A DNA stretch of 32,000 nucleotides from Nanoarchaeum equitans Kin4-M (lineage in GTDB: Archaea; Nanobdellota; Nanobdellia; Nanobdellales; Nanoarchaeaceae): NCBI GenBank assembly GCA_000008085.1, contig AE017199.1, positions 30,001 to 62,000 of the forward strand, given 5' to 3'. How positions within the stretch are numbered: the first letter of the stretch is position 1; the number at the start of each line of letters is the position of its first letter. The translations under genes and the position numbers were made by a program. Below, piece after piece: positions 5,248 to 29,961 of the stretch. Under the pieces are notes generated by a model. That model saw only the letters and a program-made list of their open reading frames with translations, was not told the origin of the DNA and made no database searches.

Positions 5248-5301
5248 ACGCGGGGTGGGGCAGCCTGGAGTGCCCGGGGGGCTCATATCCCCCTGGCCGC
5301 C
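5248..5301 (+). tRNA. tRNA 5' half, anticodon CAU (Met, initiator-like), with 14-nt GC-rich 3' extension
   Basis: A(-1), acceptor strand CGCGGGG, U8, D arm GGGC/AGCCUGGAGU/GCCC, G26, anticodon-stem strand GGGGG, loop CUCAUA. This is followed by UCCCCCUGGCCGCC and a T7 run. No T arm or acceptor 3' strand follows. Confidence 0.75.
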
Positions 5302-5308
5302 TTTTTTT
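5302..5308 (+). terminator. oligo-T terminator after tRNA half
   Basis: TTTTTTT immediately after the GC-rich tail. Oligo-T is the usual archaeal termination signal. Confidence 0.55.
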
Positions 5309-5317
5309 CATATTTAA

Positions 5318-5389
5318 TGGACCCGCCGGGATTCGAACCCGGGGCCTCCGCCTTGCGAGGGCGGCGTCCTACCGCTGGACTACGGGCCC
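5318..5389 (-). tRNA. tRNA-Ala (CGC)
   Basis: Reverse complement: GGGCCCG UA GUCC AGCGGUA GGAC G CCGCC CUCGCAA GGCGG AGGCC CCGGG UUCGAAU CCCGG CGGGUCC A. Perfect cloverleaf with the G3:U70 Ala identity pair. No encoded CCA. TATA-like TATTTATT (5410-5417) is centred 24.5 nt upstream of G1. Confidence 0.95.
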
Positions 5390-15780: not shown

Positions 15781-15829
15781 ATGATGATGGACCAAATTAC
15801 AGAATAATGAAGACGACCACGGGCACTGA
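15781..15829 (+). ncRNA. C/D box sRNA (2'-O-methylation guide)
   Basis: AUGAUGA(C)-UGGACCAAAUUA(12)-CAGA(D')-AUA-AUGAAGA(C')-CGACCACGGGCA(12)-CUGA(D). Intergenic, with a GC-rich second guide in AT-rich surroundings. Confidence 0.75.
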
Positions 15830-15857: not shown

Positions 15858-16934
15858 ATGGATGAAAAAGAGAAATACAAACTAAAATCCCTCTTAAGAC
15901 AATTAAAAAGCATAGAAGGGCGGGGTACAGAATTGGTTTCCCTATATATACCATCTAACTATCCTATAGGAAAAATATTAGACCAATTGAATTACGAATA
16001 CGCTACTGCTGCAAACATAAAAGATGATACTACTAGAAAAAATGTACAAGCAGCATTAGCTAAAATAATAAACTATTTGAAAGATTTTAAGAAAATCCCT
16101 GAAAATGGGTTAGTAATTTTTGCTGGCAACATAGCAGGGAGGGGCGACCAAGATGTTAGACTATGGGCTATTGTACCTCCAGAAAAAAGTAACCTAAAAC
16201 TATATAGATGTGATTCTAAATTTTATGTAGAGCCATTAGAAGAAATGTTAGAAGAGAAAAAACTATATGGGATAGTAACTATAGATAAAGGAGAAGCAGC
16301 AATAGGTTTAATTAAAGGGCGAAAACTTATAGTTTTAGACGAATTCGAAAGCTGGGTTCCAAGGAAACACCATAAAGGAGGGCAATCCGCCCGAAGGTTT
16401 GAAAGGCTAATAGACCAAGCCACACAGGAATGGTTGCAATATGTTGCGGAAAAAGCGAGACAATATTTCGATAAATACAAAGACAAAATACAAGGTATTA
16501 TTATTGGAGGATCTGGTTTCGCTAAACACGATTTTATCGAATATTTGCCTTATTATTATAAAGACAAAATAATTGCTATTGTAGATACCGGTTATAGCGA
16601 TGCCTATGGGTTAAGAGAAGCTTTATATAGAGCAGAAGATAAATTAAAAGAATTGGAAATAGAAAAAGAGAGAAAAATTTTATCAGATTTGTTTAAAGCT
16701 ATAGCATTGGGTAGAAAAGACATCGCTTTAGGATATGAAGAAGTTAAAAAATATTTGGAACAAGGACTAGTTCAAAAAATAATTGTTATGGAGGATTTTC
16801 CCAAATTGGATGAAATATTGGAATTGGCAGAAAAACATAATGTAGATGTAGAAATAATTGAAGGAGGAACAACAGAAGCAGAACAATTTAGACCAATTGG
16901 TATAGCAGCTTTTCTATATTACGCATCAGAGTAG
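15858..16934 (+). CDS. prf1: peptide chain release factor aRF1
   Basis: GGQSARRFERL (GGQ motif), NIKD (NIKS-like), and size and architecture typical of aRF1. Confidence 0.9.
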   Translation: MDEKEKYKLKSLLRQLKSIEGRGTELVSLYIPSNYPIGKILDQLNYEYATAANIKDDTTRKNVQAALAKIINYLKDFKKIPENGLVIFAGNIAGRGDQDVRLWAIVPPEKSNLKLYRCDSKFYVEPLEEMLEEKKLYGIVTIDKGEAAIGLIKGRKLIVLDEFESWVPRKHHKGGQSARRFERLIDQATQEWLQYVAEKARQYFDKYKDKIQGIIIGGSGFAKHDFIEYLPYYYKDKIIAIVDTGYSDAYGLREALYRAEDKLKELEIEKERKILSDLFKAIALGRKDIALGYEEVKKYLEQGLVQKIIVMEDFPKLDEILELAEKHNVDVEIIEGGTTEAEQFRPIGIAAFLYYASE

Positions 16935-16974
16935 AGAAGACTCATCATTAATCAGTTGTCCTCGACTTCTTCAT
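16926..16974 (-). ncRNA. C/D box sRNA candidate spanning the 3' ends of two convergent CDSs
   Basis: Minus strand: AUGAAGA-AGUCGAGGACAA(12)-CUGA-UUA-AUGAUGA-GUCUUCUCUACU(12)-CUGA. This is the same 7-12-4-3-7-12-4 layout as the other two. Confidence 0.6.
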
Positions 16975-20226: not shown

Positions 20227-21247
20227 AAATAGATTCGTCTTTAGCGAAGCGTATGTACCATCTAAAATATTACATAGAGATGACGAAATATCTTTGATAT
20301 ATACTGCAATTTCCCCAATAAAACAAGGAGAAAAACCATTAAACATATTTATTTATGGGCAAACCGGCACAGGAAAAACATTAGTTACCAAATATGTTTT
20401 ATCAAAAATAGGAGATTACATATATATTAATTGCAAGTTTGCTGGCATAACAAAAAGGATAGAAAGCTTTATTAGGGAATTCTCTTTACAATTAGGCCAA
20501 GATTTTTATGATTTGACCGATGTTATACAATATATAAGAGATAAAAAATTAATAATTGTGTTTGATGAGGTTGACCAACTATCAAAAGATTTGGGAGACG
20601 AAATATTATATACTTTTACGAGAGCCCCAGGAAATATTGGAATTATAGGTATTTCAAACAATATATTTTTTGTTGATAGGCTCGATCCAAGGGTTAGATC
20701 TTCTTTAAGCGAATTAGAGATATTATTCAAACCATACAATGCTTTGCAATTAAGAGATATATTATTGGAAAGAGCCAAAGAGGGATTATACGAAAATAGT
20801 TATGATTTGGCAGCGATATCATACATAGCAGCAGTCACTGCCAGGGAATACGGCGATGCTAGGAGAGCAATTAATTTATTAAGATTGGCCGGAGAAATTG
20901 CGGAGCGTAAAGGTAAAAATAAAATAGAATTGGAAGATGCAAAAGAAGCTATAGAATTGGAAGAGAAAGATAAAGTAAAATTCGTTATTGAATCTTTGCC
21001 TTTGCAATCCAAATTAGTATTAAAATCTATTGCTGAACTAAAAGACACAACATTGGGAAAAGCTTATGAACTATATTATAGAAAAAGCTTAGAAAAAAGT
21101 GTTACTCCCATTACATTTAGAAGGTTTGTAGAAATAGTAAACGATTTAGAAACTTTAGGATTAGTATCAATTGATTTTGCTTTATTAAATGGGAAAAGAG
21201 TTAGAAAGGTAAAAACCTTTATTAGTCCGAAAATTATTGATCTATAA
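20213..21247 (+). CDS. cdc6: Orc1/Cdc6 replication initiator
   Basis: [14 protein letters not shown]-terminus, GQTGTGKT (Walker A), VFDEVD (Walker B), [10 protein letters not shown] (sensor 2) and a C-terminal winged-helix-like region. 14-nt overlap with cysS. Confidence 0.9.
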
Positions 21248-22237: not shown

Positions 22238-24031
22238 ATGACTATAGTAGTACCTGATACCTCTGCGCTTATAGAAAAGGCTATATCTAAAATGATAAAA
22301 GAAAACAAAATCAAACCTTCAAAAATAGTTATACATAACGCTACTATCGCAGAATTGGAACATCAAGCCAATGAAAATAGAGAAATAGGTTATTTAGGAT
22401 TAGAAGAAATCGAAACTCTAAAAGAGATGGCCGACCAATATGGGTTTACTGTAGAGTTCCAAGGGGAAAGACCAAAAGCTGAAGAAATAATACTGGCAAA
22501 AAAAGGAGAGATAGATAATAAAATTAGAGAGTTGGCTAAACAATTGAATGCTATATTAATTACTGCAGATAGAACCCAATATTATGTAGCAAAGGTTTTA
22601 GGAATCCAGGCAATATTTTTAGAAAAGCCAAAAAGAGAAAAATTGTTGTTTGAGCAATATTTTGATGAAAATACTATGAGTGTACATTTAAAAGAGGGCT
22701 TGCCCCCATTGGCCAAAAAAGGAACTCCTGGTAAATGGGAGTTAGTTAGAATAACGGACAAACCTTTAACAAAAAACGATTTAGAAGAAATAATAAAAGA
22801 GATCGCTGAAGAAGCTGTTAGCAGAGAAGATTCTTATATAGATATTGAGGGCGAAAACATTTTAGTAGCACAAATAGGCAAATACAGAATTGTAGCGGTT
22901 AAACCTCCATTGAGTGATGCAATAGAAGTAACTATAGTAAGACCCGTTAAGAAACTATCCTTAGAAGATTATAAAATTAGAGAAGAATTATTAGAAAGGC
23001 TAAAAGAAAAAGCTCATGGTATTTTAATAGCTGGTGCCCCAGGTATGGGTAAAACCACATTCGCCCAGGCATTGGCTATGTTCTATGTAAAATTAAACAA
23101 AGTGGTAAAAACTATAGAATCCCCAAGAGATATGGATTTGGGAAAAGAAGTAACCCAATATTCTTTAACTCAAGGCAAAACCCGAGAAATATATGCTTTA
23201 CTATTATTAGCTAGACCTGATTATGTTTTGTTTGATGAAGTTAGAACAGAAAGAGATATCAAATTGTTTGCAGATTTAAGATTAGCAGGAATAGGAATGA
23301 TAGGAGTAATACATGCAAATAGAGCGATAGATGCTATACAAAGATTTATAGGAAAAATAGAATTGGGTGTAATCCCTCAAGTAGTTGACACTGTTATTTT
23401 TATAGATAAGGGCCAAATAGCCAAAGTATATACATTAGATATGGTTGTTAAAGTCCCTACTGGAATGAAGGAAGAAGATTTGGCGAGACCCGTAATAGAA
23501 GTTAGAGATCTATATACAGGCAAATTGGAATATGAAATTTATGTTTTTGGAGAGGAAACTGTTGTAATGCCCATACATGGCGAGCAAATGCCAAATGCTT
23601 TAGCGAGATTGGCAAAAATCGCTATAGAGAATGAAATAAAGAGATTTCTAAAAACAGATGTAAAAGTAGAAATAGAGTCCCCAAATAGAGTTACAGTTTA
23701 TGTTCCAAAAGGGTATAGAAAGAGACTAGTAGGAAAAAGGGGAAAAACAATTGAAAGCTTTGAAAAAATGTTGGGTGTAAGAATAACTGTAAAAGAGATA
23801 GGCGAAGAAGAGCCAGAGTTTAACATAAAGGAAACAAACAAATATCTAATAATAGAGTTACCCCCAGAATATTATAGAAGGGTTGTAACTATTCTAATCA
23901 ATGGAAGACCCTTTGTAGACGCTATAGTAGGGAAAGATGGAAAAATAAAAATCGCTAAAAATAGTGATTTAGGTAAAGTACTATACAATGCTCTAAAAGG
24001 TGGAGCAAAAATTGATATAGAGCTTAAATAA
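22238..24031 (+). CDS. PIN domain - PilT-like ATPase - KH domain protein
   Basis: N-terminal PIN-like VVPDTSALIE...ITADR, Walker A AGAPGMGKTT, LFDEVR, and a C-terminal KH motif VGKRGKTIESFEKMLGV. Confidence 0.75.
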   Translation: MTIVVPDTSALIEKAISKMIKENKIKPSKIVIHNATIAELEHQANENREIGYLGLEEIETLKEMADQYGFTVEFQGERPKAEEIILAKKGEIDNKIRELAKQLNAILITADRTQYYVAKVLGIQAIFLEKPKREKLLFEQYFDENTMSVHLKEGLPPLAKKGTPGKWELVRITDKPLTKNDLEEIIKEIAEEAVSREDSYIDIEGENILVAQIGKYRIVAVKPPLSDAIEVTIVRPVKKLSLEDYKIREELLERLKEKAHGILIAGAPGMGKTTFAQALAMFYVKLNKVVKTIESPRDMDLGKEVTQYSLTQGKTREIYALLLLARPDYVLFDEVRTERDIKLFADLRLAGIGMIGVIHANRAIDAIQRFIGKIELGVIPQVVDTVIFIDKGQIAKVYTLDMVVKVPTGMKEEDLARPVIEVRDLYTGKLEYEIYVFGEETVVMPIHGEQMPNALARLAKIAIENEIKRFLKTDVKVEIESPNRVTVYVPKGYRKRLVGKRGKTIESFEKMLGVRITVKEIGEEEPEFNIKETNKYLIIELPPEYYRRVVTILINGRPFVDAIVGKDGKIKIAKNSDLGKVLYNALKGGAKIDIELK

Positions 24032-24080
24032 TCAGCCGGTTTGAGAATCTTCATCTCTCGGGCGGGGATAATTTCATCAT
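24032..24080 (-). ncRNA. C/D box sRNA fused to the 3' end of tRNA-Gly
   Basis: Minus strand: AUGAUGA(C; its first A is the tRNA discriminator)-AAUUAUCCCCGC(12)-CCGA(D')-GAG-AUGAAGA(C')-UUCUCAAACCGG(12)-CUGA(D). Confidence 0.7.
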
Positions 24081-24150
24081 GCGCCCGCCGGGATTCGAAC
24101 CCGGGTCACGGGCTTGGAAGGCCCGCATCCTACCACTAGACTACGGGCGC
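24080..24150 (-). tRNA. tRNA-Gly (UCC)
   Basis: Reverse complement: GCGCCCG UA GUCU AGUGGUA GGAU G CGGGC CUUCCAA GCCCG UGAC CCGGG UUCGAAU CCCGG CGGGCGC A. No encoded CCA. Confidence 0.95.
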
Positions 24151-24168
24151 AGAGATAGAAATGAAAAC

Positions 24169-24180
24169 TATTTAAAAATA
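24169..24180. promoter_or_regulatory. shared TATA element (TATTTAAAAATA) between tRNA-Gly and divergent ORF
   Basis: The TTTAAA centre (24173.5) is 23.5 nt from the tRNA 5' end (24150) and 23.5 nt from ATG 24197. Confidence 0.55.
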
Positions 24181-24196
24181 TTTGAAATTTATCTTA

Positions 24197-24736
24197 ATGG
24201 TTTGGCTGTATAAAATTTTAACAACCCTTGAAAAAAAGCTGTATAATAATATAAATAAATTGGAATATGCAGGCGCAAACGATATAAATAATATGGTTGC
24301 ATTGCAATACCAAACATCGGATATGGATTTAGAAGTTTATTTGAAAAAAGACAATTTTTATGCCGTTACTAAAAAGGGCTTAGATAAATCCACAATACTC
24401 AAAAAAATAGAATATACAAAACTATTTCCATTTTTTGACAATAGAACGCCATTAGAAAGAGAAATAGAATTGGCCGATTGGGTAAAAGAAATGATAGTAA
24501 ACAGGTTTTTATATAACATTAGAACCGATACAATGGGGATTAGAAATGAAGACGATTTAATAATAGCGTACAAAGCCGGCAAATTCGTTTTACCAATCTA
24601 TTTTCAATTATATATAAGACCAACGGATGAAGGTTATAAAGAGATTAGAGAACTTTTAGAAAAAAACGGATTGAAAAGGGGAAAATATAGGGTAATACCC
24701 ATGCCATTATTAAAATTTTTAAAAGAGAGAGAATAA
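24197..24736 (+). CDS. hypothetical protein
   Basis: The ORF track starts at TTG 24182. The promoter spacing favours ATG 24197 (MVWLYKIL). No recognised motif. Confidence 0.45.
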   Translation: MVWLYKILTTLEKKLYNNINKLEYAGANDINNMVALQYQTSDMDLEVYLKKDNFYAVTKKGLDKSTILKKIEYTKLFPFFDNRTPLEREIELADWVKEMIVNRFLYNIRTDTMGIRNEDDLIIAYKAGKFVLPIYFQLYIRPTDEGYKEIRELLEKNGLKRGKYRVIPMPLLKFLKERE

Positions 24737-25813
24737 CTATTTTGCCGCCGTGCCCGAGCGGCCAAAGGGGTCGGGCTGCAGACCCGATGGTCGGGGGTTC
24801 GAATCCCCCCGGCGGCTTAGCATTAGTATAATAACAGTTAGCCCAATAAGAAAGCTTAGAAAAGCGCCTTCCAATTGGAACACTTTAATAAAATATAGAG
24901 AGCTTAACAAAGTTGCTATAATCCCTATTAATAAAGTTTTTATCTTTAGCTTTAGGAATTCTATGGCATATATATAGCCAAAATACGCTCTTACAATAAC
25001 TAAAAATACTACATAAATTAAGTAGGGCAATACTATTTTGTATTTGGGATTAATCAAAGAAAAAGCTATATCTATTATTGGAGGTGCAAAGAGATAAAAT
25101 AGTATAGATACTATTAGGGGTAAAAGCAACAAATCAACTATTGGGTTTTTGTTTTTCACTCTATGCAAAAATATATCGGTACTTGAAGACACATGTAACA
25201 CTACTGAAGAAAACCCCAAAACTAAACTGTATATCGCCGCTTCTTTTTTTAGGTTATTCAATAATAAAACTGCTTGTGGTATCAAAGGTAAAACCATCAT
25301 TAACAAAACTATTATATGGGTTTTTTCTAAAAAACAAACTTTTGGTTTTCCAACAATTAAATAATAAAAGGGGGCTAAACTAACAAAATAGGCTAAAAAA
25401 ATATTTATATCCTTGGTTAGCAAAAAAATTAGCAAACTTATAATAGAGAATAGTAAAAGCTTATGGAATTGCGATTTTTTAATTAATAGGGTTCTCCCGA
25501 TTGTTAAGGAGATTTGGGCTATAAAGAATACCAAACCAACTGTGGCCCATTTCTCTATAAAGGACAAAATTAGAAATATTATAGTTCCAGCAATTAAATA
25601 AAATCTAATGCATTCCAATTTATTATTTTGATGCCAAAGATTTATGCTTCCTTCGTAAGAAAATATTAATCCCGCTTTAGCACCAAGAGCTTTGAAAAAA
25701 GAGATTACTCCATATATATTAGGAGGAAATTCCTTAATTAATAATAAAGTGACGAAAGCGTTTAATAAATAACTAATCATAAAAGATAGTCTATCATAAA
25801 TAAAGTCTTTCAT
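24737..25813 (-). CDS. polytopic membrane protein, Wzx/MOP-flippase-like
   Basis: About 10 hydrophobic helices, divergent from a GT4/GPT gene. The last 27 codons (RRGDSNPRPSGLQPDPFGRSGTAAK) are the antisense of tRNA-Cys. Confidence 0.5.
   Translation of the reverse strand: MKDFIYDRLSFMISYLLNAFVTLLLIKEFPPNIYGVISFFKALGAKAGLIFSYEGSINLWHQNNKLECIRFYLIAGTIIFLILSFIEKWATVGLVFFIAQISLTIGRTLLIKKSQFHKLLLFSIISLLIFLLTKDINIFLAYFVSLAPFYYLIVGKPKVCFLEKTHIIVLLMMVLPLIPQAVLLLNNLKKEAAIYSLVLGFSSVVLHVSSSTDIFLHRVKNKNPIVDLLLLPLIVSILFYLFAPPIIDIAFSLINPKYKIVLPYLIYVVFLVIVRAYFGYIYAIEFLKLKIKTLLIGIIATLLSSLYFIKVFQLEGAFLSFLIGLTVIILMLSRRGDSNPRPSGLQPDPFGRSGTAAK
24744..24817 (+). tRNA. tRNA-Cys (GCA)
   Basis: GCCGCCG U G CCCG AGCGGCCAA AGGG G UCGGG CUGCAGA CCCGA UGGUC GGGGG UUCGAAU CCCCC CGGCGGC U. 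Has the U73 discriminator typical of tRNA-Cys. TTTTTAAAA (24716-24724) is centred 24 nt upstream. No CCA. Confidence 0.93.
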
Positions 25814-26818: not shown

Positions 26819-28431
26819 TATCTATATTTTACAAAATAAGATAAAACGCTCGCTAAAAATAGAACAGAAGTTTTAATGTTGATATAAATTCCCACACTAA
26901 GCAATGCGCCAATAATTATTAACAACAAATCTAATCCTCCTCCTTGTCCTACCAATAAACTTAACTTAAACATTAAAACATAAGGAATAATGTTTAGCAA
27001 TATTATTGGGATATACCAGCTTTCCTCTAAATAAGGAATTAAATATATGAAATGGCTCGCCATTAACAAATAATGCCCCGCTATTGCATACAAATATTGA
27101 GTAGATAATTCTAAATTAGTTAAAGAAACTAACCCAACTAACAATAAAGAGCTAACAAAAAATCTATTTTTATCGCCAAATGATTCATAATATAGAATAA
27201 ACAAAACCGAAATCAAAAATGCGGTTGCTATCAAAATAATAAAAGAGCTGGCAGAAAAGTATAATAGAACCAAACTTAAAACTAAATAGAATACTAAAGC
27301 AGCATTGCTTTTTGATAATTCTTCAAAAAGCTGGCCCATTGTTATAGAAAATATAAATAATAAAGCGGTTTTTTGAGACCACACTGGGGAAAGCAATTGC
27401 AATATATTGGCTATTTCATTATAATTAAAATTGTCCATTTTTGGCATTGTGAAAAATCCTAAAACTATGGATAGAACTAATAACAAAGCAGAAATAACCA
27501 AGGAATTTTCATGTTTGGATTTTGCTATAGTGATTATAGATGTAATAACATTAGCGATCCATAGTATAAATAAAGAAGAGCTATCTATTATTGTATAGCT
27601 TGTATCTCCCATTCTAATTAGAATAGGCAATAAAGTATCTACCAACAAAAAAGCTGGCAACAATATTGAAGAAGCTCTTGTAAAACCTAGCAAAAATATG
27701 GTAAAAAACAAATATAAGGATAATGCTTGTATTATTGGGAAAGGTAAATGCAAAGCATTTAGTAGTATAAACAATATAGTAAACAAACCAAACCCTATGA
27801 AATAACCAATAGCGTTTCCTATTCTTTTCCCTACATAATATATGAAAGAGCCCATAAGTAATGCAAATAGTATAGACCTTACTATTGGGACTGGAGCTAG
27901 TTTTATATAAAAATCCCCGTAAAGGGTTTTGAATGCATTATCTAACACACAAAAAGGAGGAGTTTGTATAACTTGTTCTAAGGGTGTTTTTATTTTATAT
28001 AATTTATGATAACAATAACCGTTTTCGACTTTTTCACAATAATTATATATAGAAGGATAACCGCTTTTTATATAATAGTATGTTTTACAATCCAAGTTAG
28101 CTAAATTAAATAAAGTATTCTCAAAGCTATGCTTAGCATACAATAGTTTAGCATAATTGCATTCATCTAGTAATAAAATTTTATATGACGCATTTTCTAA
28201 TGAGGGTTTTAACCCATTGTATGGCACTAACAAATATATACTATCCTTATTTTGATAGAAAGCGAAATAATCATAAGGTATTTTGAATGTTACTTTAAAG
28301 GTTTTATCTTTTTTGTTGTATTCGCATCCAATTACAGGGCCTTTAAGTTTATTGCAATCAAAATATTCATTTTTTTCTAATTTTATTGTAATATTAAGGG
28401 TTTTTTCTTTTACATCGAAATTACAAATCAT
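26818..28431 (-). CDS. large polytopic membrane protein with Cys-rich N-terminal ectodomain
   Basis: About 180-aa N-terminal soluble region with ~10 Cys, then ~12 hydrophobic helices. No WWDYG or other motif recognised. ATGA overlap with rnhB. Confidence 0.5.
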   Translation of the reverse strand: MICNFDVKEKTLNITIKLEKNEYFDCNKLKGPVIGCEYNKKDKTFKVTFKIPYDYFAFYQNKDSIYLLVPYNGLKPSLENASYKILLLDECNYAKLLYAKHSFENTLFNLANLDCKTYYYIKSGYPSIYNYCEKVENGYCYHKLYKIKTPLEQVIQTPPFCVLDNAFKTLYGDFYIKLAPVPIVRSILFALLMGSFIYYVGKRIGNAIGYFIGFGLFTILFILLNALHLPFPIIQALSLYLFFTIFLLGFTRASSILLPAFLLVDTLLPILIRMGDTSYTIIDSSSLFILWIANVITSIITIAKSKHENSLVISALLLVLSIVLGFFTMPKMDNFNYNEIANILQLLSPVWSQKTALLFIFSITMGQLFEELSKSNAALVFYLVLSLVLLYFSASSFIILIATAFLISVLFILYYESFGDKNRFFVSSLLLVGLVSLTNLELSTQYLYAIAGHYLLMASHFIYLIPYLEESWYIPIILLNIIPYVLMFKLSLLVGQGGGLDLLLIIIGALLSVGIYINIKTSVLFLASVLSYFVKYR

Positions 28432-29030
28432 ATGAAATCTGTTAGTTTTTTGTTTATTTCAAAGGGCCATTTCTTTCTTATATAAGGTTTTAATATTCTA
28501 TAATATTGTTCCAAAGCTTTTCTAGTTCTTTTATCTGAAGGATAACCAGAACCAAAATCTATACCAGTTTGTTCTTTTATTTTTTCTATTTCTCTATCTC
28601 TTATAACTTTTGCTACAATAGATGCTGCTGCAACTAATGGGTCTTCTTCTCCTTTATTTTTGGTAATAATTTTTACCCTCTTTTTCAAATATTTCAAAAT
28701 CCTTAGTTTATAATTTTCAGGTCTTTCTGGAGAATCAATAACTATATGGGATATTTCGTCCTCAATACTATTAATTAAGTTCGCTGTTACCTTCGCTTCA
28801 AGTTCATTTAAGTTATATCTATCTATTAAAGAAGGGCTAACTATTTCGTATTTTACTAAGCTATTTTTGACTATCTCATTAAATAGTTCTTCTCTTTGTT
28901 CTTTTGTTAATAGTTTAGAATCTTTTACTCCCAATTCTTTTAAGTATCCAGAATCTCCAATAACTAAAGCAATAACCATTGGCCCAATAATTGGACCCCT
29001 CCCTGCTTCGTCAACTCCTCCATATCGCAT
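28428..29030 (-). CDS. rnhB: ribonuclease HII
   Basis: GVDEAGRGPIIGPMV, DSKLL, AASIVAKV and GSGYPSD. Confidence 0.9.
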   Translation of the reverse strand: MRYGGVDEAGRGPIIGPMVIALVIGDSGYLKELGVKDSKLLTKEQREELFNEIVKNSLVKYEIVSPSLIDRYNLNELEAKVTANLINSIEDEISHIVIDSPERPENYKLRILKYLKKRVKIITKNKGEEDPLVAAASIVAKVIRDREIEKIKEQTGIDFGSGYPSDKRTRKALEQYYRILKPYIRKKWPFEINKKLTDFI

Positions 29031-29961
29031 ATTCGTATAAAACTATATCATTCCTTTTATATATTATAGTGCCTTTTTTGTATTCAATATAATCCAAATC
29101 CTCGGCAATTATCCAATCCTTCTTATTATATAAGTATTGGTATATTTCAAACAAAGAGCCCTGGTACCTTGGACTAACATGTATAAAAACTAACAATTTA
29201 GAGTTGCTTTCATCCCTTATTCTAAAAGCGTCGCTAATTGTGGAATGGTAATGCTCGATAGCTTTATCTTTGTCTTTATCTAAAAAAGCCAATTCGTGAA
29301 ATATTATATCGCTATCTCTAGCAAAATCTATGAATTGCTCTCTAAAAAGGGTATCTGTTATTAAAGTAAACTTTAAGCCTTTTTGTATATAAGTAAACTC
29401 TTTAGGGTCTAATGTTATACCATTTATTGTTACGGATTTGCCTTCTTTTAGTTTGGCCAATTTAGGGTTAGATCTTATATTGTATTTAGCTAATTTCTCT
29501 TTATTTATTTTTATTTTGTCCTTTTCTTTGAAAGAATAGGCCAAAACTGGTACTTGGTGTATGCCATAGATAGATTCTATATAAAAAGGCCCAAAATCTA
29601 TTTTGGTTTCGCCAATCTCTTTTATTTTTAACGGGAAATTTATATTTATAGCGAAGCTATCTATAATTTTTTCTATAACTTCTTTAATGCCTTTAGGTCC
29701 AAAAATTGTTAACTCTCTATTATAATCTTGGTTTGACAAACTTAATAGAATTCCTGGTAAGCCCAAAATGTGGTCTCCATGTATATGGGTTAGAAATATA
29801 TAATCTATTTGGGTAGGAGATAAATTTAACAAACGCATTTGCCTTTGTGTATTTTCTCCAGCATCAAATAAAATGCCCTTTCCCATATAGTTAACAAAAA
29901 TAGAAAGGGTTTGTCTATATTTTGTAGGCATGTTCCCCCCAGTTCCCAATATATAAATCAT
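29011..29961 (-). CDS. rnz: ribonuclease Z (tRNA 3' endonuclease)
   Basis: LGTGGNMPT...LFDAGENTQRQ...FLTHIHGDHILGLPGIL (metallo-beta-lactamase HxHxDH motif in the RNase Z context). Confidence 0.8.
   Translation of the reverse strand: MIYILGTGGNMPTKYRQTLSIFVNYMGKGILFDAGENTQRQMRLLNLSPTQIDYIFLTHIHGDHILGLPGILLSLSNQDYNRELTIFGPKGIKEVIEKIIDSFAININFPLKIKEIGETKIDFGPFYIESIYGIHQVPVLAYSFKEKDKIKINKEKLAKYNIRSNPKLAKLKEGKSVTINGITLDPKEFTYIQKGLKFTLITDTLFREQFIDFARDSDIIFHELAFLDKDKDKAIEHYHSTISDAFRIRDESNSKLLVFIHVSPRYQGSLFEIYQYLYNKKDWIIAEDLDYIEYKKGTIIYKRNDIVLYEYAIWRS

Follow-up and report, generated by a model that had tools for sequence, protein, structure and literature searches.

A Shared Nucleotide Joins tRNA-Gly(UCC) to a C/D Box sRNA Gene in Nanoarchaeum equitans

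Anatomy of the tRNA-Gly–sRNA3 Locus

The window analyzed here is a 32,000-nucleotide stretch of the Nanoarchaeum equitans Kin4-M genome corresponding to NC_005213 30001-62000. On its minus strand, between positions 24150 and 24032, a tRNA gene runs head to tail into a C/D box sRNA gene. The features of the locus, together with the RNase Z gene of the same window, are as follows.

24171..24176 (-): TTTAAA, box A (TATA-like) promoter element of tRNA-Gly, at -26 to -21 from the tRNA 5′ end
24080..24150 (-): tRNA-Gly(UCC), 71 nt and leaderless, with the discriminator A73 at 24080; Rfam RF00005, 73.3 bits
24074..24080 (-): C box AUGAUGA, whose first base is the tRNA discriminator A73; from the sequence and pattern scans
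24062..24073 (-): D′ guide, 12 nt, AATTATCCCCGC (as RNA, AAUUAUCCCCGC); published target 23S rRNA 541 (Gm)
24058..24061 (-): D′ box CCGA, degenerate with the GA retained; from the sequence
24055..24057 (-): GAG, 3-nt spacer between D′ and C′
24048..24054 (-): C′ box AUGAAGA; from the sequence
24036..24047 (-): D guide, 12 nt, TTCTCAAACCGG (as RNA, UUCUCAAACCGG); published target 23S rRNA 2569 (Um)
24032..24035 (-): D box CUGA, touching the stop codon of the convergent gene; from the sequence
24028..24085 (-): published extent of sRNA3/NeqsR03, which begins in the tRNA, takes in its final 6 nt and continues as UUAU past the D box
24007..24031 (-): T-rich stretch, TTATTT at 24031-24026 directly after the D box and TTTTT at 24011-24007 (21 nt further)
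22238..24031 (+): convergent gene NEQ059, a PIN-domain/ATPase/KH protein, with its stop TAA adjoining the D box
29011..29961 (-): RNase Z gene (NEQ064 in Randau, 2012); NCBIfam TIGR02651 at 332.4 bits (cut-off 292.95); Pfam Lactamase_B_2

The tRNA is placed at 24079-24151 by ARAGORN, one base longer at each end, but the limits 24150-24080 are preferred because of the positions of U8 and A9, the G1-C72 pair and the promoter spacing. Downstream of it are a box C of the form RUGAUGA near the 5′ end and a box D (CUGA) near the 3′ end, along with D′ and C′ boxes, two 12-nt guides and a D′-C′ spacer of 3 nt in a 12/3/12 layout, all characteristic of a C/D box sRNA. An initial annotation had described this tRNA–sRNA fusion, and each of its elements was recovered base for base when the minus strand was read. 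This includes the double use of A73 at 24080 as the first base of the C box and the contact between the D box and the TAA of the PIN-ATPase reading frame (22238-24031). The protein encoded by that frame matches Pfam PIN, T2SSE and KH_1 and NCBIfam PRK13764 (785.9 bits).

A chance match or pseudo-sRNA is ruled out by shuffle controls together with published expression. Two matches to TGATGA-N15-22-TGANGA-N10-13-CTGA are present in the window against 0.00 in 100 dinucleotide shuffles, and a looser regular expression matched three window sites but nothing in 200 Markov shuffles. The three sites correspond to N. equitans RNAs already in print, namely sRNA1, sRNA2 and sRNA3; sRNA1 and sRNA2 lie at 15781-15829 (+) and 16926-16974 (-), and of the C/D sRNAs here sRNA2 alone attains an Rfam gathering threshold (sR45, 42.8 bits).

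Identity With a Published sRNA

The sRNA gene is that of N. equitans sRNA3, known since 2012 and listed at NC_005213 54028-54085 as a 58-nt RNA of sequence GGCGCATGATGAAATTATCCCCGCCCGAGAGATGAAGATTCTCAAACCGGCTGATTAT (Randau, 2012, Genome Biol 13:R63, PMC3491384, Additional file 2). Its 58 nt and two 40-nt flanks (138 nt in all) are found verbatim in the window at 23988-24125. It is documented as a stable RNA with a published coverage of 3,800 reads, and had been predicted earlier by snoscan in the genome annotation (Randau, 2012). The same table gives its context as “NEQ059->sRNA3<-tRNAGly<-” with the remark “tRNA-sRNA”, and tRNAGly(TCC) is named in the text as adjacent to an sRNA (Randau, 2012). 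In a later supplement the same RNA appears as NeqsR03 (Dennis et al., 2015, PMC4644070). The initial annotation had left open whether this locus had been described, and it had. Nor is the wider class new, since tRNA–C/D sRNA dicistrons cut by RNase Z have been published and reviewed, and are summarized by Lui (2018, PMC6009581) and Breuer (2021, PMC7994747).

Guides and Predicted Targets

PLEXY predictions assign the D guide of sRNA3 to 23S-2569 and the D′ guide to 23S-541 (Randau, 2012). When the duplexes were recomputed from the target strings quoted in that paper, the D guide paired over 10 bp with -16.2 kcal/mol; the D′ guide paired over 11 bp, one of them G-U, with -18.6 kcal/mol. In both quoted duplexes the methylated base stands opposite the fifth guide nucleotide, in keeping with the N+5 rule. 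The sRNA3 guides are predicted to direct 2′-O-methylation at 23S 541 and 2569. Fibrillarin (NEQ125) and Nop56 (NEQ342) are both present in the N. equitans genome (Randau, 2012). The target of the D guide, GCGGU*UUGAGAC, was aligned as a 12-mer with UGGGU*UUAGAAC of an E. coli 23S copy, numbered by anchoring at Um2552 and counting on 32 nt. By this numbering the predicted site at 2569 corresponds to E. coli U2584, the neighbor of U2585 in the peptidyl transferase center.

The 12/3/12 arrangement of guides and spacer is the mode among the 25 N. equitans sRNAs parsed from the published table, and a 3-nt D′-C′ spacer is present in 22 of them (Randau, 2012). As a D′ box, CCGA occurs in sRNA3 only; the others have CTGA (18 sRNAs), CAGA (four), ATGA or AGGA (one each). 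Although found nowhere else in this set, CCGA is acceptable as a variant of the D′ box. No Rfam C/D family matches the sRNA at its gathering threshold, the best scores being 21.8 bits for sR10 and 20.0 bits for sR1 (threshold 45 in each case). About a dozen archaeal C/D models nevertheless align in register below threshold, the best with E = 0.0015 (sR10) and E = 0.0037 (sR1). Rfam thus recognizes a generic C/D likeness and holds no family for this guide pair.

Signals for Transcription and tRNA 3′ Processing

Transcription of N. equitans tRNAs starts 26 nt downstream of a box A with the sequence TTTAAA, and in this organism, which is without RNase P, the transcripts begin at +1 with no 5′ leader (Randau, 2012). 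Judged by its TTTAAA motif, the tRNA-Gly gene follows this published geometry. Within the window, tRNA-Cys has TTTAAA at the identical distance and 5S rRNA within 1 nt of it. The C box is preceded by GC-rich tRNA sequence, in which no TTTAAA-like box is present over 50 nt, and there is no T-run between tRNA-Gly and sRNA3. The sRNA therefore lies directly 3′ of a tRNA on the same strand, overlapping it by one base, with neither promoter nor terminator in between, as expected for a dicistronic gene. Co-transcription from the tRNA promoter is the best reading because box A is found only at the tRNA and no T-run separates the genes; tRNA-Gly and sRNA3 are thus probably made as one transcript. The initial annotation had given a promoter to the tRNA only, and this was borne out. 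Such tRNA–sRNA precursors have been termed “potential” dicistronic transcripts (Randau, 2012). The T-rich stretches at 24007..24031 are candidate archaeal terminators, placed antisense within the 3′ end of NEQ059.

RNase Z is encoded by the organism, and its gene is found about 5 kb from the locus. One of the two presumed tRNA–sRNA substrates of the enzyme is thus only 5 kb from the gene that encodes it. A gene for RNase HII (28428-29030) adjoins that of RNase Z.

Search for Orthologous Loci

A metagenome scan for the D guide with its boxes (TGANGANTCTCAAACCGNCTGA) gave seven matches, none with upstream C/D′ boxes or a tRNA, where about seven were expected by chance. This negative result is weak, since a JGI contig with the identical locus (L032) was missed and the collection scanned is therefore short of some relevant contigs. 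Neither the guide scan nor synteny of the two neighbors led to an orthologous locus, and comparative support is accordingly absent. Eleven further N. equitans contigs are identical over whichever part of the locus each spans, and so carry no information on covariation or selection. Five independent N. equitans assemblies among the Logan contigs (L039-L043) end at one and the same base, ~24088, in the T-arm/acceptor region of tRNA-Gly; this shared end most likely reflects a break of the de Bruijn graph where the tRNA-Gly isoacceptors have sequence in common, and not a biological boundary.

A relative is represented by JGI contig Ga0081592_1000037 (L031), which encodes a NEQ059 homolog with 80% identity. 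There the PIN-ATPase gene is followed by a Cdc6 gene, and neither tRNA-Gly nor sRNA3 is present within the 20.6 kb examined, so that synteny downstream of the PIN-ATPase gene is lost. The same contig carries, at 20385-20621 (+), tRNA-Pro(UGG), 35 nt, tRNA-Ala(CGC), a 4-nt spacer (TAAA) and a canonical C/D sRNA of the form GTGAAGA-GTTTCACCGCAT-CTGA-CCA-GTGATGA-TCTTCGCCAGGC-CTGA. The tRNA-Ala(CGC) of N. equitans (window 5318-5389) has no sRNA behind it, and tRNA–sRNA linkages therefore vary between close relatives.

Other Features of the Window

Convergent with tRNA-Ala(CGC) is a GC-rich 52-nt element, GCGGGGTGGGGCAGCCTGGAGTGCCCGGGGGGCTCATATCCCCCTGGCCGCC, within 5250-5308 (+), with a TATA-like box ~26 nt upstream and a run of seven T residues after it. 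It has an anticodon loop CUCAUA followed by a GC-rich pairing tail and so resembles the 5′ half of a split tRNA. Neither ARAGORN nor Rfam makes a call on this element, which we take to be, probably, the known 5′ half of the N. equitans initiator tRNA-Met.

An open reading frame of 179 aa (24197-24736 (+)) lies by the tRNA-Gly promoter. It is a strict ORFan, for a search of 5.8 billion clustered proteins gave no homolog from outside N. equitans. A mechanically called 358-aa membrane-protein frame (24737-25813 (-)) runs antisense through the whole of tRNA-Cys (24744-24817 (+)) before its stop codon, and has no Pfam match.

A Scan for Archaeal tRNA–sRNA Fusions

Fusions of this kind were sought in 185,579 species genomes with a pattern that combined a T-arm, a C box at 0-9 nt past the discriminator, a C′ box and a D box. 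There were 23 matching loci, 20 archaeal and three bacterial; the three agree with a rough prior estimate of ~5 matches by chance. The archaeal fusions come from Micrarchaeota, Aenigmatarchaeota, Njordarchaeota, Nitrososphaerota, Archaeoglobaceae, Acidianus, Thermoproteota and others, and all have canonical TGATGA/CTGA boxes with an in-register D′ box (CTGA in 19, TTGA in L017). Since a pattern alone retrieves 20 independent cases, the arrangement of a tRNA followed by a C/D sRNA is widespread in archaea. The spacer between discriminator and C box ranges from 1 to 8 nt in these loci; 5 nt is the commonest length, and no spacer is shorter than 1 nt. Although the pattern would also catch an overlap, every other archaeal fusion has at least 1 nt here, which makes the N. 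equitans locus an outlier: set against the 20, tRNAGly-sRNA3 stands alone in having one nucleotide common to tRNA and sRNA.

Some of these pairs recur. A tRNA-Ser is fused to an sRNA with guides TTGGAGGGGTCT and AAGCCGCCAAT in Archaeoglobaceae and uncultured archaea (L004, L019, L020), and a tRNA is fused to an sRNA with guides GGTTCAACC.. and GCATGTCTTG in Crenarchaeota, Nitrososphaerota and Njordarchaeota (L003, L011, L012, L022). A third recurring pair is found in Micrarchaeota (L007, L023). As the same fusions recur across lineages, some tRNA–sRNA linkages may be old and conserved.

Maturation of the Precursor and the 5′ End of sRNA3

With the gene anatomy, the promoter position and the presence of RNase Z established directly from the DNA, a pathway for expression can be proposed. 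Driven by the box A promoter at -26, transcription would begin with tRNA nucleotide G1 and would run unbroken through tRNA-Gly and sRNA3, probably ending in the T-rich stretch past the D box. Endonucleolytic processing would part the two RNAs, with RNase Z cleavage after A73 yielding the tRNA. sRNA3 would assemble with L7Ae, Nop5 and fibrillarin, and its two 12-nt guides would direct 2′-O-methylation of 23S rRNA at 541 (D′) and 2569 (D). We consider it highly probable that sRNA3 is fused to the 3′ end of tRNA-Gly(UCC), transcribed from the tRNA promoter, a guide for 23S 541 and 2569, and separated from the tRNA endonucleolytically. This interpretation is essentially the published one, except in the detail of the 5′ end. 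The initial annotation had read the locus as a dicistronic precursor for a methylation guide; its core, a C/D guide expressed without a promoter of its own, stands and matches the published view, but the 5′ end that it derived from a cut after A73 finds no support in that form.

What then forms the 5′ end of the stable RNA? That cut was expected to give a mature species of ~49 nt beginning UGAUGA, which conflicts with the only published termini, those of a 58-nt RNA starting GGCGCAUGAUGA. Published sRNA3 begins GGCGC-AUGAUGA, 5 nt within the 3′ strand of the acceptor stem (Randau, 2012). Its 5′ end is thus at 24085, whereas the RNase Z product would start 6 nt downstream at 24079, and because of this difference RNase Z is not obviously the source of stable sRNA3. 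The published termini were set by manual inspection of coverage plots (Randau, 2012). Among the 25 parsed N. equitans sRNAs, 14 have an overhang of exactly 5 nt ahead of the C box, the modal length, and four start directly at the C box. sRNA3, with its 3,800 reads, is the second rarest of the 25, and sRNA8 is the most abundant at 207,100 reads.

In the simplest scheme RNase Z would cut after A73 and thereby form the sRNA 5′ end, so that each transcript would yield both a tRNA and an sRNA of ~49-52 nt, and we rate the chances of this scheme at slightly below even. The enzyme is encoded (TIGR02651), and exactly this route has been proposed in print for tRNAVal-sRNA8, in which the RNase Z site and the start of the sRNA fall together (Randau, 2012). 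Against it, published sRNA3 reaches 6 nt upstream of the site, the product would miss the R of RUGAUGA, and a spacer of less than 1 nt is found in none of the 20 other archaeal fusions. The scheme stands if the published terminus is imprecise. A different origin for that terminus, transcription of sRNA3 by itself from a promoter within the tRNA gene, with a start at the purine G at 24085, is very improbable. The published 5′ end is indeed a G, and self-promoted N. equitans sRNAs begin with a purine (Randau, 2012), but the -26 region of either 24085 or 24080 is GC-rich tRNA body with no TTTAAA-like box, and the only AT-rich stretch, TTCGAAT of the T-loop, is at -14 to -8, the wrong distance. 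An internal promoter in tRNA-Gly was rejected for want of a box A at the right distance.

A third reading takes the published terminus at face value. Because the C box starts on the discriminator, one primary transcript might give either tRNA-Gly or full sRNA3 but not both, through an either/or processing switch. RNase Z cleavage after A73 would give a functional tRNA-Gly and leave an sRNA without the first C-box base or a 5′ overhang; alternatively, the sRNP would form first and the upstream tRNA be trimmed to the usual 5-nt overhang, giving full sRNA3 at the cost of the tRNA. We hold this only tentatively and think it rather unlikely, even though several observations agree with it. Published sRNA3 is GGCGC joined to AUGAUGA, exactly the modal 5-nt overhang (14/25). 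The discriminator–C box spacer of the 20 other archaeal fusions is 1-8 nt and never shorter, and as its mode is 5, the RNase Z site there coincides with the usual sRNA 5′ end. sRNA3 is scarce (3,800 reads) relative to sRNA8 with its 4-nt spacer (207,100 reads), and alternate processing pathways of plant tRNA–snoRNA precursors are reported in the title of Barbezier et al. (2009). However, the manually set terminus might stem from precursor reads or from a convention of display, the alternative cut has no nuclease assigned to it, and the overhang is inessential, since four of the 25 N. equitans sRNAs start at the C box.

Folding of the dicistron was also considered. In the minimum free energy structure the acceptor 3′ strand (CGGGCG) pairs with CGCCCG of the D′ guide and D′ box, with a z-score of only -1.84, but a fold with the cloverleaf enforced is only 3.2 kcal/mol worse at 37°C and the sRNA is unstructured at 90°C. 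On these grounds the alternative pairing was judged not meaningful.

Significance

In a genome of 490 kb, attachment to a tRNA gene would allow a methylation guide to be expressed without a promoter of its own. Finding this again adds nothing new, because it was already recognized in 2012 and later reviews have covered it (Randau, 2012; Breuer, 2021; see also Lui, 2018). The residual value of the locus is narrow and lies in the nucleotide shared by both RNAs and in a published 5′ end that misfits RNase Z cleavage as the sole source of the sRNA terminus. Read-level data for N. equitans small RNAs are deposited as GEO GSE38821, and the locus offers a cheap test case, with existing reads, for how the 5′ ends of archaeal C/D sRNAs are set. 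If maturation of the two RNAs were in fact exclusive, tRNA-Gly and sRNA3 would compete for the transcript, with stable sRNA3 arising only where the tRNA is sacrificed. The overlap would then represent an extreme of genome compaction among archaeal tRNA–sRNA fusions, given that none of the 20 others has a spacer below 1 nt.

Comparison With Known tRNA–sRNA Systems

With respect to published sRNA3, the RNA described here is the same, with no difference in sequence or context. The 2012 text is silent on the one-base overlap between discriminator and C box, and on the position of the listed 5′ end inside the tRNA (Randau, 2012). The nearest counterpart is tRNAVal-sRNA8 of the same organism, in which a leaderless tRNA is likewise followed by a promoterless C/D sRNA and for which RNase Z (NEQ064) has been proposed as the processing enzyme (Randau, 2012, Figure 5). 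The two differ in that tRNAVal-sRNA8 has a 4-nt spacer (UUUU), and because of this spacer its RNase Z site falls at the expected sRNA 5′ end, which is also the published one. sRNA3 has no spacer, and its published 5′ end is inside the tRNA.

Dicistrons of this design also occur in plants. The plant tRNA–snoRNA genes belong to eukaryotic Pol III systems and have a spacer between tRNA and snoRNA, and the dicistronic genes of Arabidopsis are also tRNA-Gly fusions (tRNAGly-snoR43). In these genes, which are processed by RNase Z (Kruszka et al., 2003, EMBO J; Barbezier et al., 2009, Plant Physiol), a C/D guide is placed on a tRNA promoter and freed by tRNA 3′ processing. They were cited as a precedent for tRNAVal-sRNA8 (Randau, 2012) and are cited again in Breuer (2021). 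Other archaeal fusions, known through the account of Tripp et al. (2017) given in Breuer (2021) and through tRNAMet-sR44 of Pyrobaculum (Lui, 2018), have the like gene order and canonical boxes. In these archaeal fusions at least 1 nt separates the discriminator from the C box, and in Pyrobaculum the distance is from 8 nt or less up to 100 nt, whereas in tRNAGly-sRNA3 a single base serves both RNAs.
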